Positions 50,407-63,818 are shown, numbered from the stretch's first letter. The stretch: 64,000 nt of DNA from an uncultured Candidatus Rokubacteria bacterium (GCA_963758635.1 CAVWWD010000007.1:1-64000), one strand, 5' to 3'. Numbers and translations: made by a program. Notes: a model not told the origin generated them from the sequence alone.

Positions 50407-50510
50407 GACGGGCCCTAGTGTAGGAACCGCCCCACAACGTGTCAACGCGCGCGCCGAGCGAGAGCGAGGGAACCCGCCTACGCGCCTGCTATCGTGAGCG
50501 CATGCCTGCG

Positions 50511-50786
50511 ATGGATCTGGCCATCGGTGTGACGAGTCTCCGGGCGCGGTTGAGCCACTACCTGCATGCGGTCTCCGCCGGCGCCACCGTCACGATCAGC
50601 CGCCATCGTCGGCCCATCGCAAGGCTCGTTCCGATCGTGCGATCCCCGGGCCTGGACGTACTCGATCTACTGGCGAAGCGCGGAGTGCTGCAGCACGGTA
50701 CTGGTAAGCCCGGCAAGGCCCGGAGGGTGAGGCTCCGGAAGGGCAGCCGCCTCGTTTCCGGTCTCGTGATCGAGGATCGTGGCTGA
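50511..50786 (+). CDS. Phd/YefM-family antitoxin (orphan)
   Basis: IGVTSLRARLSHYL..V.AG.TV.ISRH.RPIARLVP; no toxin gene follows on this strand. Confidence 0.75.
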   Translation: MDLAIGVTSLRARLSHYLHAVSAGATVTISRHRRPIARLVPIVRSPGLDVLDLLAKRGVLQHGTGKPGKARRVRLRKGSRLVSGLVIEDRG

Positions 50787-50812
50787 TCCTCGCAGGGCCC
50801 TCTTCTGCGGCG

Positions 50813-51040
50813 TCAGCGGTTGCGGTCTTCGCGAATGAGGCGCACGCCGCGCGATTTGTGCAGCGGCTGACGCGCGCGGATCTCCGCGGCACGAGCGGCG
50901 ATCTCGGCGCGGGTTGGCCGTGTCCCCTCGGTCAGGATGCGGCGCACCTCCTCCTCCACCGAGACGCCGTGCAGCTGGGCCTGGAGTCTCAGTCGCTCTG
51001 CCACCTCGTCGTCCAGTTCGTGCACGATGATCGTCGCCAT
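50813..51040 (-). CDS. FitA-like ribbon-helix-helix antitoxin (copy downstream of toxin)
   Basis: MATIIVHELDDEVAERLRLQAQLHGVSVEEEVRRIL...IREDR. Confidence 0.85.
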   Translation of the reverse strand: MATIIVHELDDEVAERLRLQAQLHGVSVEEEVRRILTEGTRPTRAEIAARAAEIRARQPLHKSRGVRLIREDRNR

Positions 51041-51049
51041 GACCGGTAG

Positions 51050-51517
51050 CTATCCTTTCCAGATCTTGATGCCTAGGCGATCGGCCGCGCGTCGAAGCCG
51101 GTCGTCTGCGGTGGCCAGGCGCGCTGACCCCCTGATGGCGAGCATCAGGTAGAGGCAGTCATAGACTGGATGGTCGAGGTCTGCGGCAAGACGCGCCGCG
51201 GGTCGAAGTAGCGGCGTTGATGGGGTCCAGGCAATGCCGAGCGCGAGCAGGTGGGTGATGGCGCGCTCGACGTTGGACAGATCCATCTCGCCGCGTCGCT
51301 GTCGCTTCCACCACGCGTTGGTAACTTCCACGGCCATCAGGTCGGGCGCAAGCAATGGTATCTCGCTGGTCAGGAGCTCCTCTGAGTGCCACGGATCGCG
51401 CTCGTTCGCGAACCAGTGGAACGCGATCGAGGCGTCGACCACCACGGGCGCGACGGACGCGTCGTAGGTCGCGTGCCGTTCGCGAGCGTGCCGGCGTACC
51501 ACCCGGGGTGACCTCAT
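51050..51517 (-). CDS. vapC: PIN/VapC toxin
   Basis: VVVDASIA..W, APDL...EV.N, HPVYDCLYL, LATAD. Confidence 0.9.
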   Translation of the reverse strand: MRSPRVVRRHARERHATYDASVAPVVVDASIAFHWFANERDPWHSEELLTSEIPLLAPDLMAVEVTNAWWKRQRRGEMDLSNVERAITHLLALGIAWTPSTPLLRPAARLAADLDHPVYDCLYLMLAIRGSARLATADDRLRRAADRLGIKIWKG

Positions 51518-51741
51518 CGGTTTCGGTCTTCGCGGATCATGTCCACGGCGGTCGATTGCGTGAGAGGCTGCCGCGCACGGATCGCCGCTGCCTGCGCAGC
51601 AATCGCCGCGCGGGTCAACCGGGTGCCATCGGCCAGAACACGCCGCGCCTCTTCCTCCACCGAGACACCGTGCAGGCGCGCCTGAAGCCGGAGCCGCTCT
51701 GCCACCTCGTCGTCCAGATTGCGCACGATGATCGTAGCCAT
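51514..51741 (-). CDS. FitA-like ribbon-helix-helix antitoxin (copy upstream of toxin)
   Basis: MATIIVRNLDDEVAERLRLQARLHGVSVEEEARRVL...IREDR; ATGA overlap with toxin. Confidence 0.88.
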   Translation of the reverse strand: MATIIVRNLDDEVAERLRLQARLHGVSVEEEARRVLADGTRLTRAAIAAQAAAIRARQPLTQSTAVDMIREDRNR

Positions 51742-51756
51742 GGAAGATAGCATATA

Positions 51757-51817: not shown

Positions 51818-54600
51818 ATGCCCATTCCGCTCGGCGCGCCGTTCCGTCCCGGTCTCGATCCGCTCCCCGACACGCAGCACGCGTGGGCCGTCGTGAAGGA
51901 CCAGTGGGGGCGGCCCGCGCACGCCGATCCGCGCGACGGGCTCCGGCAGATCGAGATACCGGTGCCCGAGATCGGCCCCAACGAGGCGCTCGGCTACGTG
52001 CTGCACGCCGGCCTCACGTACAACACGATCTTCGCCGCGCGCGGCGTGCCCATCTCCGTGTTCGACCTGCACGACCGCGACCTGCACGTGCCGGGCAGCG
52101 GGGCGGTGGTGCTGCTCGCCGCGATCGGGCGCGAGGTGGCGCGCGAGGGCCGGCTGCGCGTGGGCGAGCTCTACGTGCTCTACCCGGGCGTGTCGAACCT
52201 GCTCTCGCCGCGGGCCGGCGAGGATCCGATGCACGCCGACTTCAAGATCCAGGGTTACGAGACGCCCGACGGCTCCTTCTGCCAGTTCGTGCGGGGCCAG
52301 GCGCCGCAGCTCCTGGCGCACTCACGGCGGCTGACCCTCGCCGAGGGCTCGTCGTACATGCTCGACCTGGAGACGGTGTACAAGGCGCTCTACGACGTGG
52401 CGCAGCTCGAGACCGACGAGCGCGTGTTCGTGGAGGGCGCGGCGGGGGGCACCGGGATCTACGCGGTGGCGTGCGCCGCCCTCCGCGGCGCCCACGTGAC
52501 GGGCCTCGTCTCGACCGAGGAGAAGGGGCGGCTGGTCCTCTCGCGCGGCGGCCACACGTACGTCAACCGCAAGGCCGCGGACATGACGGGCGTGTTCACC
52601 CCGGTGCCGGCCGGCTCCGCTTCGCGCGCGGCGTGGAGCGCGGCGGGCGCCGCCTTCAAGGCCATGGTGCGTGAGCGGAACCAGGGGGCGCTCATGAACG
52701 TGGTGGTGTCCTCGGTCGGCCGCGACCTCTTCGGCCGCATGGTCGATCTGCTCGTGCCGGGCGGGCGCCTGGTGTTCTACGGCGCCACCACCGGCTACAC
52801 CCTGGCCTTCCTCGGCAAGCCCGGCGCCGCGCCGGCGCGGGAGATGCTGCGTCGCGCGCGTCTCAGGCCCAACGAGGGCGTGCTCGTCCACTACGGGCTC
52901 GGCGACGGGCTCGAGGACGAGGCGGGCGCCGAGGCGATCGAGGCCGCGCTGCGGGCGGGCGCGCGGGTCGTGGTGGCCGCGCGGCTGGACGCCCAGGCGA
53001 CGCACGTGCAGTCCACGCACCGCGTGCACGGCGTGGTGAGCCTCGAGACGCTCGACCGGGCCGGCGGCTTTCGCTGGCCCGAGGCCATGCCCGACTACGA
53101 CACCGATCGCGCGGGCTACCGCGAGTACCAGGACCTCACGCTCAAGCCGTTCGGCCAGGCGGTGGGCCGGCTCCTCGCCACGGCCGACAACCCCCGCGGC
53201 AACCCCGACGTGGTCGTCGAGCGGGCGGGCCGGGACACGCTCGGCGTCAGCACGTTCCTGGCGCGGCCGTTCACCGGCCGCGTGGTCTACGTCGAGGTGA
53301 CGCGCGACCGGCGCTTCTCGTTCTACGCGCCCAACGTGTGGATGCACGAGAAGCGCGTCCTGTTCCCGACGTTCTCGATCCTCGGCTCCCACCTGTCCAA
53401 CGCCCATCAGGCCGAGGAGGTCGTGCGGCTGATCGACGCGGGCGCGCTCGCCATCCATCCGCCCGTCGTGCGCGGCTGGGACGACCTCGCGGAGCAGCAT
53501 CAGCTCATGCACGAGAACCGCCACGCCGGCACCACCACCATCCGCGTGGGGGCCGGCCCCGCCCTCGACGGCGCGCGCACGCGCGCGCGAAGTCTACGAG
53601 GCGTGGGGCTCGCGCTTCGCCGACGGCCGCGACCGTCCGCCTGCGGCTGGATCCGGTGGCGCCGGGGCGGGAGGAGCGGGTCGCGCTCGTCACGATCGAC
53701 TCGCCTCCGGCCAACGCCATCGGCCTCACGGTGCTCGAAGAGCTCGAGCGGGTGGTCGAGACCCTGGAGAGCGACACGACGGTGCGCGCGGCGGTGCTCA
53801 CCGGCGGCGGCACGATGTTCGTGGCCGGCGCCGACATCCGCCAGCTGCGCGCCTTCGCGACGCCGGACGACGTCGAGGCCTTCACCAGCTCGCGTGCAGC
53901 GTCTCTTCACGCGCGTCGGTCGACTGCGGGCGCCCGTGATCGCCGCCGTGGACGGCTATGCGCTGGGCGGCGGCAACGAGCTCCAGATGGCCTGCGCGTA
54001 TCGCGTGGCAGGGGAGCGCGCGGAGCTTGGTCAGCCCGAGATCAACCTTCACGTGCTGCCCGGCTTCGGCGGCACCCAGATGCTGCCCCGGCTCGTGCTG
54101 CGCAGGAATGTGCGGTGAGCGGTCGGGCGGGCGAGACGGGCTGGTCGAGGCGCTCGCGATGCTCCTGGACGGGCGGCGTCGCACGGCATCGGCCGCGCTC
54201 GCCCTCGGGCTGGTCGACGAGGTGGCCCCGGCCGATGCCCTGTCACACGCCTTGTCAATCGCGCGCCGTGTCGCGCTGGGAGAGTTTCAGGGTACCCTGT
54301 GGTCGCCGCTGGCGGCCGGCGCGGAGATGGACACCGGGGCCGGGCGGGAGGGGTGGGAGGCGGCTCAGACTTACCCGCGCATCGGACGGATCCTGCGCCC
54401 ACCATGGCACCATCGACCGGCTGGCTCCAGCCGGGGCCACGCTGGAGGCGGTCCGGACTGGCTTGTTCGAGGGGGTCGGGGCTGGCCTCGCCCGGGAGGC
54501 TCGCCTCTTCGGCGCGATGGTGGCCTCCGCGGAGGGTAGGGAGGGGATCGACCGCTTCCTGTCCCGCCAGTCCTGGGCGCTACCCCTCCGCGAGGGCTGA
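51818..54600 (+). CDS. Pcs-like enoyl-CoA (carboxylase/)reductase fused to a C-terminal enoyl-CoA hydratase (frameshifts near 53590, 53630, 53890, 54115, 54400)
   Basis: MDR domain with [43 protein letters not shown]; then crotonase motifs [39 protein letters not shown]. Confidence 0.8.
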
Positions 54601-54608
54601 CGGTCGTC

Positions 54609-54692
54609 GTCGGGGATCTTTACGATTCCTGGCCGGGAGCCGGGCTGATCAAGGGTAAGTAGTTGAAAAAGCGTCCTGGCATGCGTCGTGCT
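54609..54692 (+). promoter_or_regulatory. Enhancer + IHF-like site + sigma54 promoter
   Basis: GTCGGGGATCTTTAC (54609), TAAGTAGTTGA (54656), TGGCATGCGTCGTGCT (54677-54692, GG-N10-GC). Confidence 0.7.
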
Positions 54693-54785: not shown

Positions 54786-55013
54786 ATGAGCGAGAACCGG
54801 CCTGACGAAGTTCAGTCGCCTCTGGAGCACAGCGATCCGATCGAGCAGGCCCCGGAGCAGCTCCAGCGGGAGATGAATCGACGCAAGCTGCTGAAGGTGG
54901 CCCTTGCGGCGCCGCCCGTGATGTGGACTCTTCGCGCGCGGCCCGCGTCGGCCGATCACGCCCTGGGCACTCCAAGCGGAGCACTTTCGGGGAACCTGTC
55001 GAACCATCCGTAG
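54786..55013 (+). CDS. Small peptide, putative precursor/substrate of the downstream enzymes
   Basis: 75 aa, AAGGAG RBS; acidic N-terminus, NRRKLLK, AAPPVMWTL, ASA|DHALGTPSGALSGNLSNHP. Confidence 0.7.
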   Translation: MSENRPDEVQSPLEHSDPIEQAPEQLQREMNRRKLLKVALAAPPVMWTLRARPASADHALGTPSGALSGNLSNHP

Positions 55014-55049
55014 GCTCTGGAGGGCCCCGCGTCTCACGCCTCCCGCTGA

Positions 55050-55346
55050 ATGGACACCCCTCCGAGCGCCGTATGGCAGGTCTCGGAGGGGTGTCAGTTC
55101 GTCTGGCAACTGTGGGATGATGAATACGTCGTGTTCGACCACGGCTCCGGCAGCACGCACTTCCTCGATCTGATCGCAGGCGAGGCCCTTCAGACCCTCG
55201 TCCAGTCCCCTTCGGACGTTCCCGGGCTCACCTACCGTATGGCGTCACGGATGGGTATCGAGTCCGACTCCGCCCTCGAGCAACGCATCCGAGACACGCT
55301 GGACCGCTTTCGCGAGGCCGGGCTGGTCGAGCCGTCTCTGACGTGA
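55050..55346 (+). CDS. PqqD/RRE family peptide chaperone (HPr-rel-A system type)
   Basis: 98 aa; WDDEYVVFDHGSGSTHFLD...L..AGLVE winged-helix pattern. Confidence 0.85.
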   Translation: MDTPPSAVWQVSEGCQFVWQLWDDEYVVFDHGSGSTHFLDLIAGEALQTLVQSPSDVPGLTYRMASRMGIESDSALEQRIRDTLDRFREAGLVEPSLT

Positions 55347-56279
55347 CGGCCGGCGAGATCTCCGCCGCCGAGTTCACCGAGCGGCTGGCGCACCCCGGGA
55401 TCACCCTCGACACCGGGGCCTTCTCGATCCAGCTTCAGGCCTCCGCCATCGATGGGCTCGGCCAGGATCTCCACTTCCTGTACGCCGACTGCCCGATCGT
55501 CCCCGATGGCGAGATCGTGGATTTCCGTGTTGCCCTCCGGCGGCCGTCGGGCCTTCGCCGGTGGTGGCGGCCCCAGGTCCGGATCCTCTTCGACGGGGCG
55601 AGCCTGGTCGAGCCGATGCCGCTGGCCGTGGCGCTCCCGGCGCTCGAGTGGGGCCTGAACTGGGCCATCGCCGCCCATGCCCACCACCACGTGATGATCC
55701 ACGCCGCCGTGCTCGAGCGGGACGGCCGCGCGGTGGTGCTGCCCGGCACTCCGGGGGCGGGCAAGAGCACGCTCTGCGCCGGGGCTCGCCCACCGGGGCT
55801 GGCGGCTCCTCTCCGACGAGTTCGCGCTGCTGCGCCCGGCCGACGGTCTTCTCGTGCCCTGGCCCCGGCCGATCAGCCTCAAGAACGTCTCGATCGACGT
55901 CATCAGGGCGTTCGCCCCCGACGCCCGCCTGGGGCGGAGCGTCCCCGACACCTCCAAGGGCACCGTCGCGCTTCTCCGGCCGCCGCCCGAGAGCCGCCGG
56001 CGCATGCGGGAGACCGCCGAGCCGGCGTGGCTCGTGTTCCCCGGCTATCGTGCGGGTGAGCCCGCCCGGCTCACCGCGTTGCCGCGCGCGCGCGCGTTCC
56101 ACCGTCTCGCGGAGATGTCGTTCAACTACGCCATGCTCGGCGCGCCTGGGTTCGAGACGTTGCGCCGCATGGTCGGCGCCTGCGACACCTTCGAGTTCAC
56201 CTACGGAGAGCTCAAGGAAGCGGTGGAGCTCTTCGGGGCGCTGGCGCCGCCGCGCTCGACGCGTGTCGAGGGAGCCTAG
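55343..56279 (+). CDS. HprK-related kinase A (frameshift near 55787)
   Basis: LEWGLNW, IHAAVLE, Walker A GTPGAGKST, RLLSDE, PRPISLKN, TSKG, SFNY. Confidence 0.88.
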
Positions 56280-57339
56280 CGCGCCGCTGCTCTTCCAGGC
56301 GCTCGGTGACCCCGGGCGTCTGCCCCGCCTGTCCGTCCCGGAGTGGGACCGTCTCCTCCGCGAGGCTCGCCGCGCCAATGCCCTGGCGCGCATCGAGGCC
56401 CTGGTCGCGGACCGCGGCGCGAGTGACCGCATCCCCGAGCGGGCGCGCCAGGCGCTCGAAGGGGCCCGCCTCGTCGTGGATCAGCAACACCGCCTCGTGC
56501 GCTGGGAGGTGACGCGGATCCGACGCGCGCTGGATGGGCTCGACGTGCGGCTCGTGCTGCTCAAGGGCGCGGCCTACGTCCACGCCGGCCTGCCGCCCGC
56601 CCGCGGCCGCACGTTCAACGATGTGGACGTCATGGTGCCGGAGGATCGGCTGCCCCTGGTGGAGGCCCGCCTCCGCGCCGCGGGCTGGACCACGCTGACC
56701 CTGGACCCGTACGACGACCGCTACTACCGCGCGTGGTCCCACGAGCTGCCGCCGATGCACCATCCGGCGCGGGGGATCGTGGTGGACGTGCACCACAACA
56801 TCCTGCCGCCGGTGGGCCGCGTGAACGCGGACGCGCGCCCGCTCCTGGAGGCGGCCGCGACGATCGCGCCCGGCCTCGCCGTGCTGGCGCCCGCGGACAT
56901 GGTGCTTCACACCGCGGTGCACCTGTTCCAGTCCGGCGAGCTCCATTCCGCGGTGCGGGATCTCACCGACCTGGACGCGCTGCTGCGCCACTTCGGCCGC
57001 GACCCGGGCTTCCCGGACGCCGTGGTGGCTCGCGGGCGCGCGCTCGGCCTGGGCCGGCCGCTCTACTACTCGCTGCGGCTCGCGCGGCGGCTCCTGGGCA
57101 CGCCCCTTCCGGCGGGGATCGAGGAGCGGGCGGGAGCGCCGTCGGCCCCGGTGCGCGCGGTCATGGACGGTCTGGTGGCGCGGGCCCTCGTGCCGCGGCT
57201 GCACGGCGAGACTCCGCGGGGCGCGGGACTGTCGCGGTGGCTCCTCTACACCCGATACCACTGGCAGCGCATGCCGGCGTGGATGCTGGCACGGCACCTC
57301 ATGCACAAGGCCATGCCGCGCCCGCGGCCGGTCAAGTGA
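56263..57339 (+). CDS. Nucleotidyltransferase family protein (NTP_transf_5-like)
   Basis: LLKGAAY, R.FNDVDVMV, YYRAWSHELPP, VDVHH, DL.D. Confidence 0.88.
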   Translation: MSREPSAPLLFQALGDPGRLPRLSVPEWDRLLREARRANALARIEALVADRGASDRIPERARQALEGARLVVDQQHRLVRWEVTRIRRALDGLDVRLVLLKGAAYVHAGLPPARGRTFNDVDVMVPEDRLPLVEARLRAAGWTTLTLDPYDDRYYRAWSHELPPMHHPARGIVVDVHHNILPPVGRVNADARPLLEAAATIAPGLAVLAPADMVLHTAVHLFQSGELHSAVRDLTDLDALLRHFGRDPGFPDAVVARGRALGLGRPLYYSLRLARRLLGTPLPAGIEERAGAPSAPVRAVMDGLVARALVPRLHGETPRGAGLSRWLLYTRYHWQRMPAWMLARHLMHKAMPRPRPVK

Positions 57340-60010: not shown

Positions 60011-60457
60011 TCACGACCGTTCGACGGGCTCGACGACCACCAGACCAGGCAGATGACCGGCGATCCGGTGGAACTCGTCGCTGTTCCCCGTGACGACAGC
60101 GGCCCCAATTCGCCAGGCCGTGAGAGCAATGAGCAGATCGTTCAGTGGACCCAGGCGGTCGTGGATCGCGAGACGCGTCGAGTACAGCTCCCGGAAGAGA
60201 GCGCCGGCGCGCTCGAACAGAGCGGCCGTCGGGGGCACGACGCGCTCCGCGGGAAAGGCGGCCTTGAGGCGGTCCACGGCACGTCGGCGTCGAAGGGTAT
60301 CCGCGCCGACGCGGAGCTCCATCAGGACCACGGCCGAGAGGAACCGGATTCTCGATTCGCGGCCACCCCACACCCACGCCTCGTGACGACCCGAGCGCAG
60401 GTAGTCGATGAACACGTTGGTGTCGAGAAGGATCCGCCCTGTCACGAGTAGGGCCAC
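60011..60457 (-). CDS. vapC: PIN/VapC toxin
   Basis: LLDTNVFID, SAVVLMEL, NDLLIALTA, VTGN..EF. Confidence 0.9.
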   Translation of the reverse strand: MALLVTGRILLDTNVFIDYLRSGRHEAWVWGGRESRIRFLSAVVLMELRVGADTLRRRRAVDRLKAAFPAERVVPPTAALFERAGALFRELYSTRLAIHDRLGPLNDLLIALTAWRIGAAVVTGNSDEFHRIAGHLPGLVVVEPVERS

Positions 60458-60648
60458 GGGCGATCGTCTCCGCGGAGCGCCGCCCGAAGCCCCTTGAGTC
60501 GGCGAACGATGCGCGTCTCCTGCATGAGGAGTCCCAGGGCTCGATCGATCGCGTCCTGCTCCGAGGTGACGCCGAAATATCGCTTGGCAAAGTCGATCTT
60601 CTGCTGATCGAGCTTCAAGTGCTTGTGCCGCCTCATGGGCGCACCCAT
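60442..60648 (-). CDS. Putative antitoxin
   Basis: Small basic ORF (HKHLKLDQQKID.AKR.FG..SEQDAIDRAL) overlapping the toxin start; GGAGGAG RBS. Confidence 0.75.
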   Translation of the reverse strand: MGAPMRRHKHLKLDQQKIDFAKRYFGVTSEQDAIDRALGLLMQETRIVRRLKGLRAALRGDDRPWPYS

Positions 60649-60661
60649 GGCACGTCTCCTC

Positions 60662-60686
60662 TCCATGTACACGGCGTGTACATGGA
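60662..60686. promoter_or_regulatory. TA operator palindrome
   Basis: Perfect TCCATGTACACG-G-CGTGTACATGGA upstream of the antitoxin. Confidence 0.7.
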
Positions 60687-62656: not shown

Positions 62657-63172
62657 TCAGCGTCGGCGCGGCGGGCGGCGCCTGCCTCGGCCCTCGAGCG
62701 CCGTGACGCGGAGCTCGAGGACGTCCAGGCGCTGCCTCGTGATGGGGCTGTCCTCTTCGAGGGATCGTACCCGCCGACCGAGATCGGCCAGCGGCTCGGT
62801 TGCGATGCGGAAGTCGGCGCGAAGCGCTTCCACGAGGACCGTCATGTGCCGCCGTGTTTCCTGATCGCCGGCGGTGATGATCTCTCGCATTCTCCCCTCG
62901 GAGGCCTGAATCTCGGTGGCGAGCCGTTCGCCCATGCGCGCCTCGGAGGCCTGAATCTCGATGGCGAGCCGTTCGCCCATGCGCGCCTCGGAGGCCTGAA
63001 TCTCGATGGCGAGCCGTGTCTCCATCCGTTCCTCGGCGCCCCGGACCTCGTGAGCGATGCGCGTCTCCACGCGGGTCAGGATCCTCGATTCCGTGGCCTG
63101 AAGCTCCCCGGCGATGCGATCGACCAGCCTCTCCTCGAGGGCGACCATGGCGTGGCTCACCTCCGGATCCAT
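62657..63172 (-). CDS. Coiled-coil protein with 15-aa tandem repeats
   Basis: RLAIEIQASEARMGE repeats followed by ETRRHMTVLVEALRADFR. Confidence 0.6.
   Translation of the reverse strand: MDPEVSHAMVALEERLVDRIAGELQATESRILTRVETRIAHEVRGAEERMETRLAIEIQASEARMGERLAIEIQASEARMGERLATEIQASEGRMREIITAGDQETRRHMTVLVEALRADFRIATEPLADLGRRVRSLEEDSPITRQRLDVLELRVTALEGRGRRRPPRRR
62896..63030. repeat. 45-bp tandem repeat, about 3 copies
   Basis: CCTCGGAGGCCTGAATCTCG(G/A)TGGCGAGCCG... starting at 62896, 62941 and 62986. Confidence 0.9.
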
Positions 63173-63383
63173 GCGTCCACTTTGAGGACGGTGGCCGGCG
63201 CTGTCAACTGTGGACGTTCTGATACACCCGCCGGGGGGGGCCTCTGGGGCCGCGACGAGCGCGGCTCGGGAAGCCCGGACATGTGCACGCCGCGCTCGAT
63301 CTTCCTGGCGTTTCGGCGGCTCCTGGCGTAACGTTCCAGGCACAAGCGCGGGAACCCGGCGCGAACCCGGAGAGGAGGACGGC

Positions 63384-63818
63384 ATGCCGAAGATCAAGCA
63401 CATCGCGCTCTCGACCCAGGACGTGGACGGCACCGCGAAGTTCTACATCGACGTGTTCGGGATGAAGGAGATCGCCAAGATCGACAGCCCGGGCGCGCGC
63501 GGCTACTACCTGAGCGACGGCGACATCAACCTGGCCATCCTCAACTTCAAGAACGACGCGGTGGCCGGGGTGGAGCGCGGGAAGGGCTGGAGCGGCATCC
63601 ACCACATCGGCTTTCAGGTGGAGAGCCTGGAAGACATCACCGCGCGCCTCGCCGCCGCTGGCTCGAACCCGCGGGACGACATCAACCAGGCCCTCGGGGT
63701 CGGGCAGGGCAACCGCTACGCGAACGTCGAGATCAAGTACACCGCTCCCGACGGCGTCACGGTGGACGTGTCGGAGCACGGCTGGGTCGGCACCAGCGCC
63801 TTCAGCGCCGGGAGCTAG
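63384..63818 (+). CDS. VOC/glyoxalase family protein
   Basis: KIKHIAL, FYIDVFGM, GIHHIGFQV, PDGVTVDVS; GAGGAGG RBS. Confidence 0.88.
   Translation: MPKIKHIALSTQDVDGTAKFYIDVFGMKEIAKIDSPGARGYYLSDGDINLAILNFKNDAVAGVERGKGWSGIHHIGFQVESLEDITARLAAAGSNPRDDINQALGVGQGNRYANVEIKYTAPDGVTVDVSEHGWVGTSAFSAGS

Follow-up and report, generated by a model that had tools for sequence, protein, structure and literature searches.

A leader-bearing peptide as candidate substrate of a widespread, uncharacterized RRE, kinase, and nucleotidyltransferase cassette

Introduction

Peptide-modifying HprK-type kinases are known from phosphorylated lasso peptide systems, namely pseudomycoidin (PsmK/PsmN), paeninodin (PadeK), and Bsf (BsfK/BsfB1/BsfN) (PMC6993621, PMC8498205, PMC10368454), and from the linear polyphosphorylated peptides (LPP) of Bacillota (Popov et al. 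2026, PMC13381572), the closest known system to the one treated here. BsfK is reported to be a peptide kinase stimulated by a RiPP recognition element (RRE; RiPP, a peptide made on the ribosome and modified after translation) (PMC10368454), PsmN is required for the appearance of a hexose on phosphoserine (PMC6993621), and LppK phosphorylates a serine near the leader (PMC13381572). Here we analyze a cassette of four genes, encoding a small precursor peptide, an RRE, an HprK-related kinase, and a nucleotidyltransferase, at positions 54786-57339 of a 64,000-nucleotide stretch (the window, meaning the whole of the DNA analyzed) from an uncultured Candidatus Rokubacteria bacterium (GCA_963758635.1 CAVWWD010000007.1:1-64000). 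Both the RRE and the kinase belong to HPr-rel-A (NCBIfam TIGR04353 and TIGR04352, with PF14907), the nucleotidyltransferase lies next to them, and no model covers the precursor upstream. We find that this precursor is likely the substrate of the enzyme trio, which is the claim we hold most firmly.

An earlier sequence-only reading of the window had proposed the same substrate and held that the HPr-rel-A trio had no characterized one. No paper was found under the HPr-rel-A names or on this cassette, in a search that left subscription journals largely outside, and term searches of PMC7470986 and PMC10036551 returned no mention of it. To that extent the statement stands, but it needs qualifying, since LPP, a close analogue that is also free of lasso machinery, has been characterized (PMC13381572).

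Results

All four open reading frames (ORFs) of the sequence-only reading lie on the + strand at the coordinates first given (ORF and sequence check), and the peptide motifs it quoted are present in the sequence. Profile matches to TIGR04353, TIGR04352, and PF14907 bear out its calls of an RRE, a P-loop kinase, and a nucleotidyltransferase. The features are:

54786..55013, + strand: precursor peptide, 75 amino acids, unannotated, short type of the leader family
54879..54953, + strand: conserved leader, residues 32-56, with twin Arg, a 12-residue uncharged stretch, invariant Pro44, Thr48-Leu49, and Ala-Ser-Ala as predicted signal-peptidase site; predicted to be both a Tat signal and the docking site of the RRE
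54954..55010, + strand: predicted 19-residue mature core with invariant S64, S68, and S72
54987-54989, + strand: codon of S68, aligned with the family-wide motif serine, predicted phosphorylation site
55050..55346, + strand: PqqD-like RRE, TIGR04353 (profile score)
55343..56279, + strand: HprK-related kinase A, TIGR04352, with a one-base frameshift near 55781 (profile score)
56263..57339, + strand: PF14907 nucleotidyltransferase, 358 amino acids, GTG start overlapping the kinase stop (E 1e-51)
54677..54691, + strand: sigma-54-like -24/-12 element TGGC-N8-TGC, inferred promoter upstream of the precursor (sequence pattern)

The stop of the RRE gene overlaps the GTG of the kinase, and the kinase stop overlaps the nucleotidyltransferase GTG at 56263, overlaps that look as they would in an operon. 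The RRE scores 65.3 bits on TIGR04353 (cut-off 35), and the 75-residue peptide matched no Pfam or NCBIfam model. The operon holds no lasso cyclase, as had been claimed, and a search of the genome (87% complete) found no PF13471 B2 peptidase; the cassette is a single copy there by genome search. This genome shares its GTDB family with genome G006, whose kinase locus (L001) is recorded as Candidatus Binatia.

The precursor and the enzyme trio are consistently linked. Among the best 80 of 342 kinase loci (the genome set), 78 have a leader ORF immediately upstream of the RRE; of these, 76 were found by a leader hidden Markov model (HMM) built from 70 of the 80 and two by eye (L079 and the truncated L025); two spurious low-score second leader matches were removed from this count. 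L071 is truncated by the end of its contig, and the genome of L067 carries a displaced precursor copy with the leader and an SCWxS motif. In a held-out set of 80 metagenome loci plus L082, an RRE is present in 68/81 and enough upstream DNA in 42, of which 33 have the upstream leader (28 by HMM, 5 by eye). The conserved small ORF expected upstream of homologous trios is thus found in both sets. Furthermore, the nucleotidyltransferase is on the opposite strand in 14/79 loci, still linked, with the precursor in its usual position before the RRE. Among 41 related genomes, leader profile matches below E 1e-6 occur only in G000, G006, and G028, each time beside the kinase, and the same three genomes alone have a complete TIGR04352 kinase; one weak match (3.6e-4) lies elsewhere. 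Because strong matches are confined to kinase-bearing genomes, the leader is not a generic twin-arginine translocation (Tat) signal. Each of five further genomes also has one strong leader copy. At the level of sequence, these data establish gene linkage with one leader per cassette.

Additional or displaced leader ORFs with a C-T-P-S-G-x-x-S-G motif lie downstream of the nucleotidyltransferase at L129, L131, L138, L147, L150, L159, L166, and L170, and L111 has two leader-bearing ORFs with this motif upstream, which suggests that one enzyme set may serve several passengers. Separately, distant HprK-related kinases scoring 55-75 bits on TIGR04352, with up to 8 matches per genome and no leader, occur at L084-L089 (G030, G032, G034, G036, G037, G040) and possibly belong to other RRE or peptide systems.

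The leader is conserved across the aligned family in the RR...P...TL...AxA form that had been predicted. Across 77 aligned precursors, R32, R33, and P44 never vary and T48 and L49 hardly do. The consensus, taken from 76 of them (L033 has no Pro-Thr-Leu match and was excluded), is RR-x-L-[LVI]-[KR]-G-A...A-P-x-[VI]-[LM]-T-L-x-S-G-A-x-A-A. RR-x-hydrophobic-hydrophobic is present in 74/76 precursors (here N-R-R-K-L-L-K at 31-37), RR-to-Thr spacing is 16 in 66/76, and an AxA-like site is present in 73/76. A twin-arginine pattern of the TatFind type matches 70/77 precursors, and the hydrophobic stretch of the leaders has a median Kyte-Doolittle value of 1.86. TatC is encoded in the host genome (E 7.5e-63), and 127/133 leader-retrieved proteins have an even number of cysteines. 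Tat carries folded, pre-modified cargo, which fits cytoplasmic modification ahead of export. The sequence-only reading had also pointed to a missing protease and exporter. Among 25 recurrent neighbor families scanned there is no signal peptidase, nor any dedicated cyclase, peptidase, or exporter shared across the loci, an ATP-binding cassette (ABC) exporter family occurs in only 6/80 loci, and neither a dedicated signal peptidase I (SpI)-like peptidase nor an MsbA-like exporter flanks the operon in the window.

Beyond the leader, precursor bodies are hypervariable, ranging from 14 to 203 residues in 76 precursors and falling into 32 sequence families. A short-peptide precursor, as first described, is what this locus encodes (75 residues), but most members of the leader family are cysteine-paired proteins of 100-270 residues. 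The first set served to fix a serine motif, [ST]-x-x-[CGAST]-[mostly hydrophobic]-x-S, which lies there within the last 25 residues of 52/76 precursors; the shuffle control in that set is biased, the motif having been chosen on the same data. In a blind test on 133 leader-retrieved proteins (149 minus 16 close to the training set, with the repeat protein P0012 left out), the motif is in the last 25 residues of 109 (shuffles 11.4, maximum 22). The C-terminal rule does not extend to the 33 distinct held-out bodies, none of which is positive in its last 25 residues; there the motif sits after the leader, in the first 30 residues of 23 (shuffles 2.6, maximum 8). Together, the alignments establish conservation of the leader and the serine as far as sequence comparison reaches.

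In a tree of 110 kinases, the branches follow precursor type: 39 kinases go with precursors that have the motif behind the leader (support 0.92), 61 with precursors that mostly have it at the C-terminus (0.97), and 10 with short peptides lacking cysteine. These 10 form two groups, and the kinase half from the window falls in one of them (0.61). Because kin share labels, this split shows lineages rather than co-evolution, and the correlations of leader distance with RRE distance (Spearman 0.27) and kinase distance (0.48) over 74 loci are weak and common to kin and are therefore not counted as co-evolution either.

The after-leader consensus, C-[TS]-P-S-G-[FW]-x-S-G-N-L-S-x-H, matches core residues T62-H74 in the window almost residue for residue. 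Conservation of SGNLS, one of the checks proposed beforehand, proved partial: S64, S68, and S72 are invariant in 14 short precursors, with a varying spacer from the cleavage site, but the asparagine (N70) is replaced by T in 5/7 close homologues, so that the invariant residues are the three serines. S68 is the last serine of the motif and common to all precursor types. Since the core matches the motif-bearing tag and S68 falls in the shared register, the gene in the window reads as a leader plus tag without a passenger; in other clades the same tag is carried on folded, disulfide-rich passenger proteins. Some precursors are unusual. The body at L064:4805-5224 is a GGKGGK repeat ahead of the serine motif, and the shortest precursor seen (L082:781-1047) has ~8 residues past the predicted cleavage site and ends GGIGSGSH. 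An ESM Atlas query with a long precursor returned hypothetical proteins only.

The RRE is homologous to solved leader-binding RREs: the sole Protein Data Bank (PDB) sequence match of its family profile is the lasso RRE TfuB1 (PDB 6JX3, E 1.8e-4). On PF05402 the RRE in the window reaches 22.5 bits, just under the 23.4 cut-off, and a genome search with PF05402 missed even this RRE and is uninformative on others. The kinase has invariant H119, G137-x-G139-K140, and S156-D157-E158 (alignment of 60/79 sequences), and the spacing of H119, K140, and D157 equals that of catalytic H148, K169, and D186 of BsfK. The predicted structure of the intact L001 kinase (predicted local distance difference test, pLDDT, 94.5) has a fold of the phosphoenolpyruvate carboxykinase (PEPCK)/HprK type, with PEP carboxykinases as best matches over most of its length and HPr kinase structures also matched. 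In the nucleotidyltransferase, D120-x-D122 (the D-x-D metal motif), H160-E161, and D175-x-H177 are invariant (window plus 60/72 sequences), and its model (pLDDT 91.9) matches MenT1 (Z 13.5, root-mean-square deviation, rmsd, 2.7 over 174 residues), TM1012 (Z 10.9), and ANT(2'') (Z 10.8, rmsd 3.6 over 163 residues). PDB sequence-profile searches with the kinase and nucleotidyltransferase matched no chain. Conserved catalytic residues and predicted folds are shown for both enzymes by alignment and modeling.

A single extra base near 55781 breaks the kinase gene into halves that match TIGR04352 positions 2-127 and 128-279 (163 and 197 bits) and together cover model positions 2-279. Each half falls below the 200-bit cut-off because the frameshift splits the gene; the intact G006 homologue reaches 367 bits. 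Contigs from two of four sequencing runs bridge the site without the extra base (X2, DNA; X11, RNA), and those of the other two stop there and thus say nothing on it. Every one of the 79 related kinases for which both halves were found reads in a single frame, and rpoN is likewise in pieces in this assembly. On these three grounds the frameshift is likely an assembly error and a pseudogene unlikely. The RNA-run contigs (X11) cover parts of all four genes, which says nothing on transcription or its level.

A sigma-54-like pattern, picked after the site in the window had been seen, lies upstream of 11/73 precursors including this one; for the reverse strand the count is 1, for shuffles 0.87. At the cassette itself, a sigma-70 promoter and an intrinsic terminator were looked for and neither was found. 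The host genome has rpoN and an orthologue of the PEP-CTERM regulator PrsR, the latter beside an exosortase on a contig other than that of the cassette; PrsR is present in 32/40 hand-picked cassette genomes, a count with no matched control. PEP-CTERM glycosyltransferases flank 9/80 loci, and the TIGR03108 PEP-CTERM amidotransferase family is near 6/80. A role in the envelope or in biofilms is plausible, if tentative. An obligatory exosortase link is unsupported, since exosortase was not found in the cassette-bearing genomes G006 and G028 (81% and 89% complete). Asparagine-synthase-like genes of the host genome are on other contigs; at G000:C5:8232-25655 three such genes lie close together, probably a polysaccharide locus.

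The genes that neighbor the cassette in the window are unrelated to it and include a Zn-dehydrogenase-like fusion, a major facilitator superfamily (MFS) transporter, a luciferase-like oxidoreductase, and PIN genes. The first, at 51818-54600, is a PF00107 gene continuing into what by eye resembles an enoyl-CoA hydratase, an apparent fusion with several frameshifts in this assembly. Small antitoxin-like genes lie with PIN-domain genes at 50481-51753 and 60011-60672 (PF01850 at 51050-51517 and 60011-60457), and two of the antitoxin-like ORFs, at 50813-51040 and 51514-51753, are near-duplicates. An ORF at 62657-63433 (- strand) has a tandem RLAxEIQASExRM repeat and looks coiled-coil-like. Finally, a perfect 14-bp inverted repeat (55052-55094, hairpin z -2.9) lies at the beginning of the RRE coding region. 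Conservation of this hairpin is absent in related loci (z<=-2 in 5/76, versus 6/76 control windows) and it was therefore rejected as a feature of the system.

Discussion

We propose that the RRE would grip the Pro-x-x-x-Thr-Leu segment of the leader, that the kinase would phosphorylate Ser68, and that the nucleotidyltransferase would cap the Ser68 phosphate with a sugar or a nucleoside monophosphate (NMP), most likely a sugar. Tat export and subsequent signal peptidase I cleavage after Ala56 would then free the modified 19-residue peptide. We put the probability of this whole scheme at roughly 0.55. RRE binding and serine phosphorylation are inferred by analogy with the characterized lasso and LPP enzymes, Tat export of the peptide is suggested more tentatively, and the capping chemistry, with the product of the nucleotidyltransferase, is the weakest part.

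Several observations weigh against the scheme. Nine of the 42 evaluable held-out loci have no upstream precursor; six of these have none within the ~3 kb examined, and in three of the nine a leader ORF sits downstream, past the nucleotidyltransferase. The serine motif as written is missing from 24/133 retrieved proteins, several of them fragments or near-variants. The leader consensus lacks the aromatic residue of the [YW]xxP RRE motif, the residue three before Pro being A, V, G, or L. The Tat signal of the sequence-only reading has an RR motif, a hydrophobic stretch, an AxA site, and TatC in its favor, but the curated Tat models PF10518 and TIGR01409 miss this peptide and match only 5/77 and 3/77 precursors, weakly, and its uncharged stretch is 12 residues, one short of the TatFind-type minimum of 13 that 50/77 reach. 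The kinase has Glu at the position of the second catalytic Asp, and the best fold matches of the nucleotidyltransferase transfer NMP rather than sugar. Finally, deletion of lppN had no effect in the LPP host (PMC13381572), which makes the capping step uncertain even in that analogue.

These fold matches are also the ground for a reading with the same substrate and export, in which the nucleotidyltransferase adds NMP to the phosphoserine or a neighboring serine, yielding a nucleotidylated peptide or an activated intermediate. The predicted structure best matches MenT1 and ANT(2''), which transfer NMP, and the three invariant serines of the short type offer room for two chemistries. Fold likeness shows no function, however, and PsmN, the sole relative with a reported outcome and itself modeled on ANT(2''), gave +162/+324 Da (PMC6993621); we regard NMP transfer as possible but rather improbable. 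The same likeness to MenT1 and MenT3, with PDB titles naming phosphorylation and a partner kinase, could suggest a toxin-antitoxin pair: the kinase would phosphorylate a MenT-like nucleotidyltransferase and so silence it, and the peptide and RRE would be bystanders. We consider this extremely improbable: it leaves the one-to-one precursor and RRE unexplained, and it is the nucleotidyltransferase that changes strand in 14/79 loci while the precursor keeps its place ahead of the RRE.

Pairs of a kinase and a nucleotidyltransferase that activate small donors are common, and the two enzymes could instead act in turn on a small molecule such as a sugar or polyol, the activated group being transferred to the precursor serine or to a polysaccharide. 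The PEP carboxykinase matches of the kinase model would agree with this, but HprK has the PEPCK-type nucleotide-binding fold too and HprK structures are among the matches. The PsmN paper leaves open that PsmN makes the substrate of another enzyme (PMC6993621); against this, the RRE-adjacent HprK-type kinases BsfK, PsmK, and LppK phosphorylate peptide directly (PMC10368454, PMC6993621, PMC13381572), which makes small-molecule activation unlikely here. Equally unlikely, in our view, is that the leader is a docking site for the RRE or enzymes that merely resembles a Tat signal, with a product that remains cytoplasmic or is exported some other way. Ordinary Tat signals are more loosely spaced, and an RR-to-Thr distance of 16 in 66/76 precursors with an invariant Pro is stricter than export alone requires; the weak or missing scores on curated Tat models and the lack of cysteines in the short type point the same way. 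Conversely, the invariant RR and hydrophobic residues, hydrophobic stretch, AxA-like site, and paired cysteines favor export, and the cassette is accompanied by no dedicated exporter or peptidase.

A broader and doubtful possibility is a new system for protein tagging and sorting, in which the RRE would also act as a Tat proofreading chaperone, keeping hold of the signal peptide until a portable serine tag is phosphorylated and activated, and the phospho-linkage would, once outside, anchor hypervariable passengers to exopolysaccharide or prime its synthesis. If so, the peptide-only type would be a tag without a passenger, and the modified tag itself would be the product.

On the preferred scheme of leader-guided phosphorylation, capping, and export, RiPP-type RRE logic would be coupled to the general Tat/signal-peptidase pathway and applied to folded secreted proteins, a combination described in none of the papers found. 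More immediately, a widespread orphan enzyme trio gains a specific candidate for its substrate and for the modified site. The leader family comprises at least 2026 clusters at 50% identity (profile, E<=0.001) and has no family model. New here are the blind motif test, the three-way split of precursors with one serine register, and the peptide-only member. The 19-residue core is the simplest member, making the kinase site and PF14907 chemistry directly accessible to mass spectrometry, and a short portable tag with three small proteins could serve to phosphorylate secreted proteins site-specifically.

With the phosphorylated lasso systems the cassette has in common the HprK-type kinase, its layout of His, Walker A, and acidic pair, and an adjacent nucleotidyltransferase, and RRE-assisted phosphorylation, reported there, is predicted here (PMC6993621, PMC8498205, PMC10368454). 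It differs in having no cyclase, no B2 peptidase, no macrolactam-forming core, and Glu for the second catalytic Asp. LPP, as reported, shares more: a leader-bearing precursor with a variable body, a stand-alone RRE, a kinase of the HprK type without a cyclase, an uncharacterized nucleoside triphosphate (NTP) transferase, signal-peptidase-type processing (predicted here), a serine near the leader that is phosphorylated in LPP and predicted to be so here, and a frequent link to polysaccharide loci (PMC13381572). The LPP leader is YxxPxVLxHQxIxFETxxS (PMC13381572), of which the cassette shares Pro-x-[VI]-[LM] without HQ and FET, and unlike LPP the cassette has a twin-arginine leader with no aromatic residue before Pro. 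LPP is described as restricted to Bacillota (PMC13381572), whereas cassette hosts, as recorded, are mostly Proteobacteria with Binatia and Rokubacteria, and cultured ones include Thioalkalivibrio and Plasticicumulans; by term search, the main text of the LPP paper mentions neither Tat nor Proteobacteria. LPP also brings an SpI peptidase of its own (LppS) together with an MsbA-like exporter (PMC13381572), whereas the cassette has no dedicated ones, and in the cassette family, unlike LPP, the serine motif may stand at either end of a folded protein. The cassette is real, widespread, and uncharacterized, a variant of the RRE, kinase, and nucleotidyltransferase kind with an unusually simple candidate substrate for tests.

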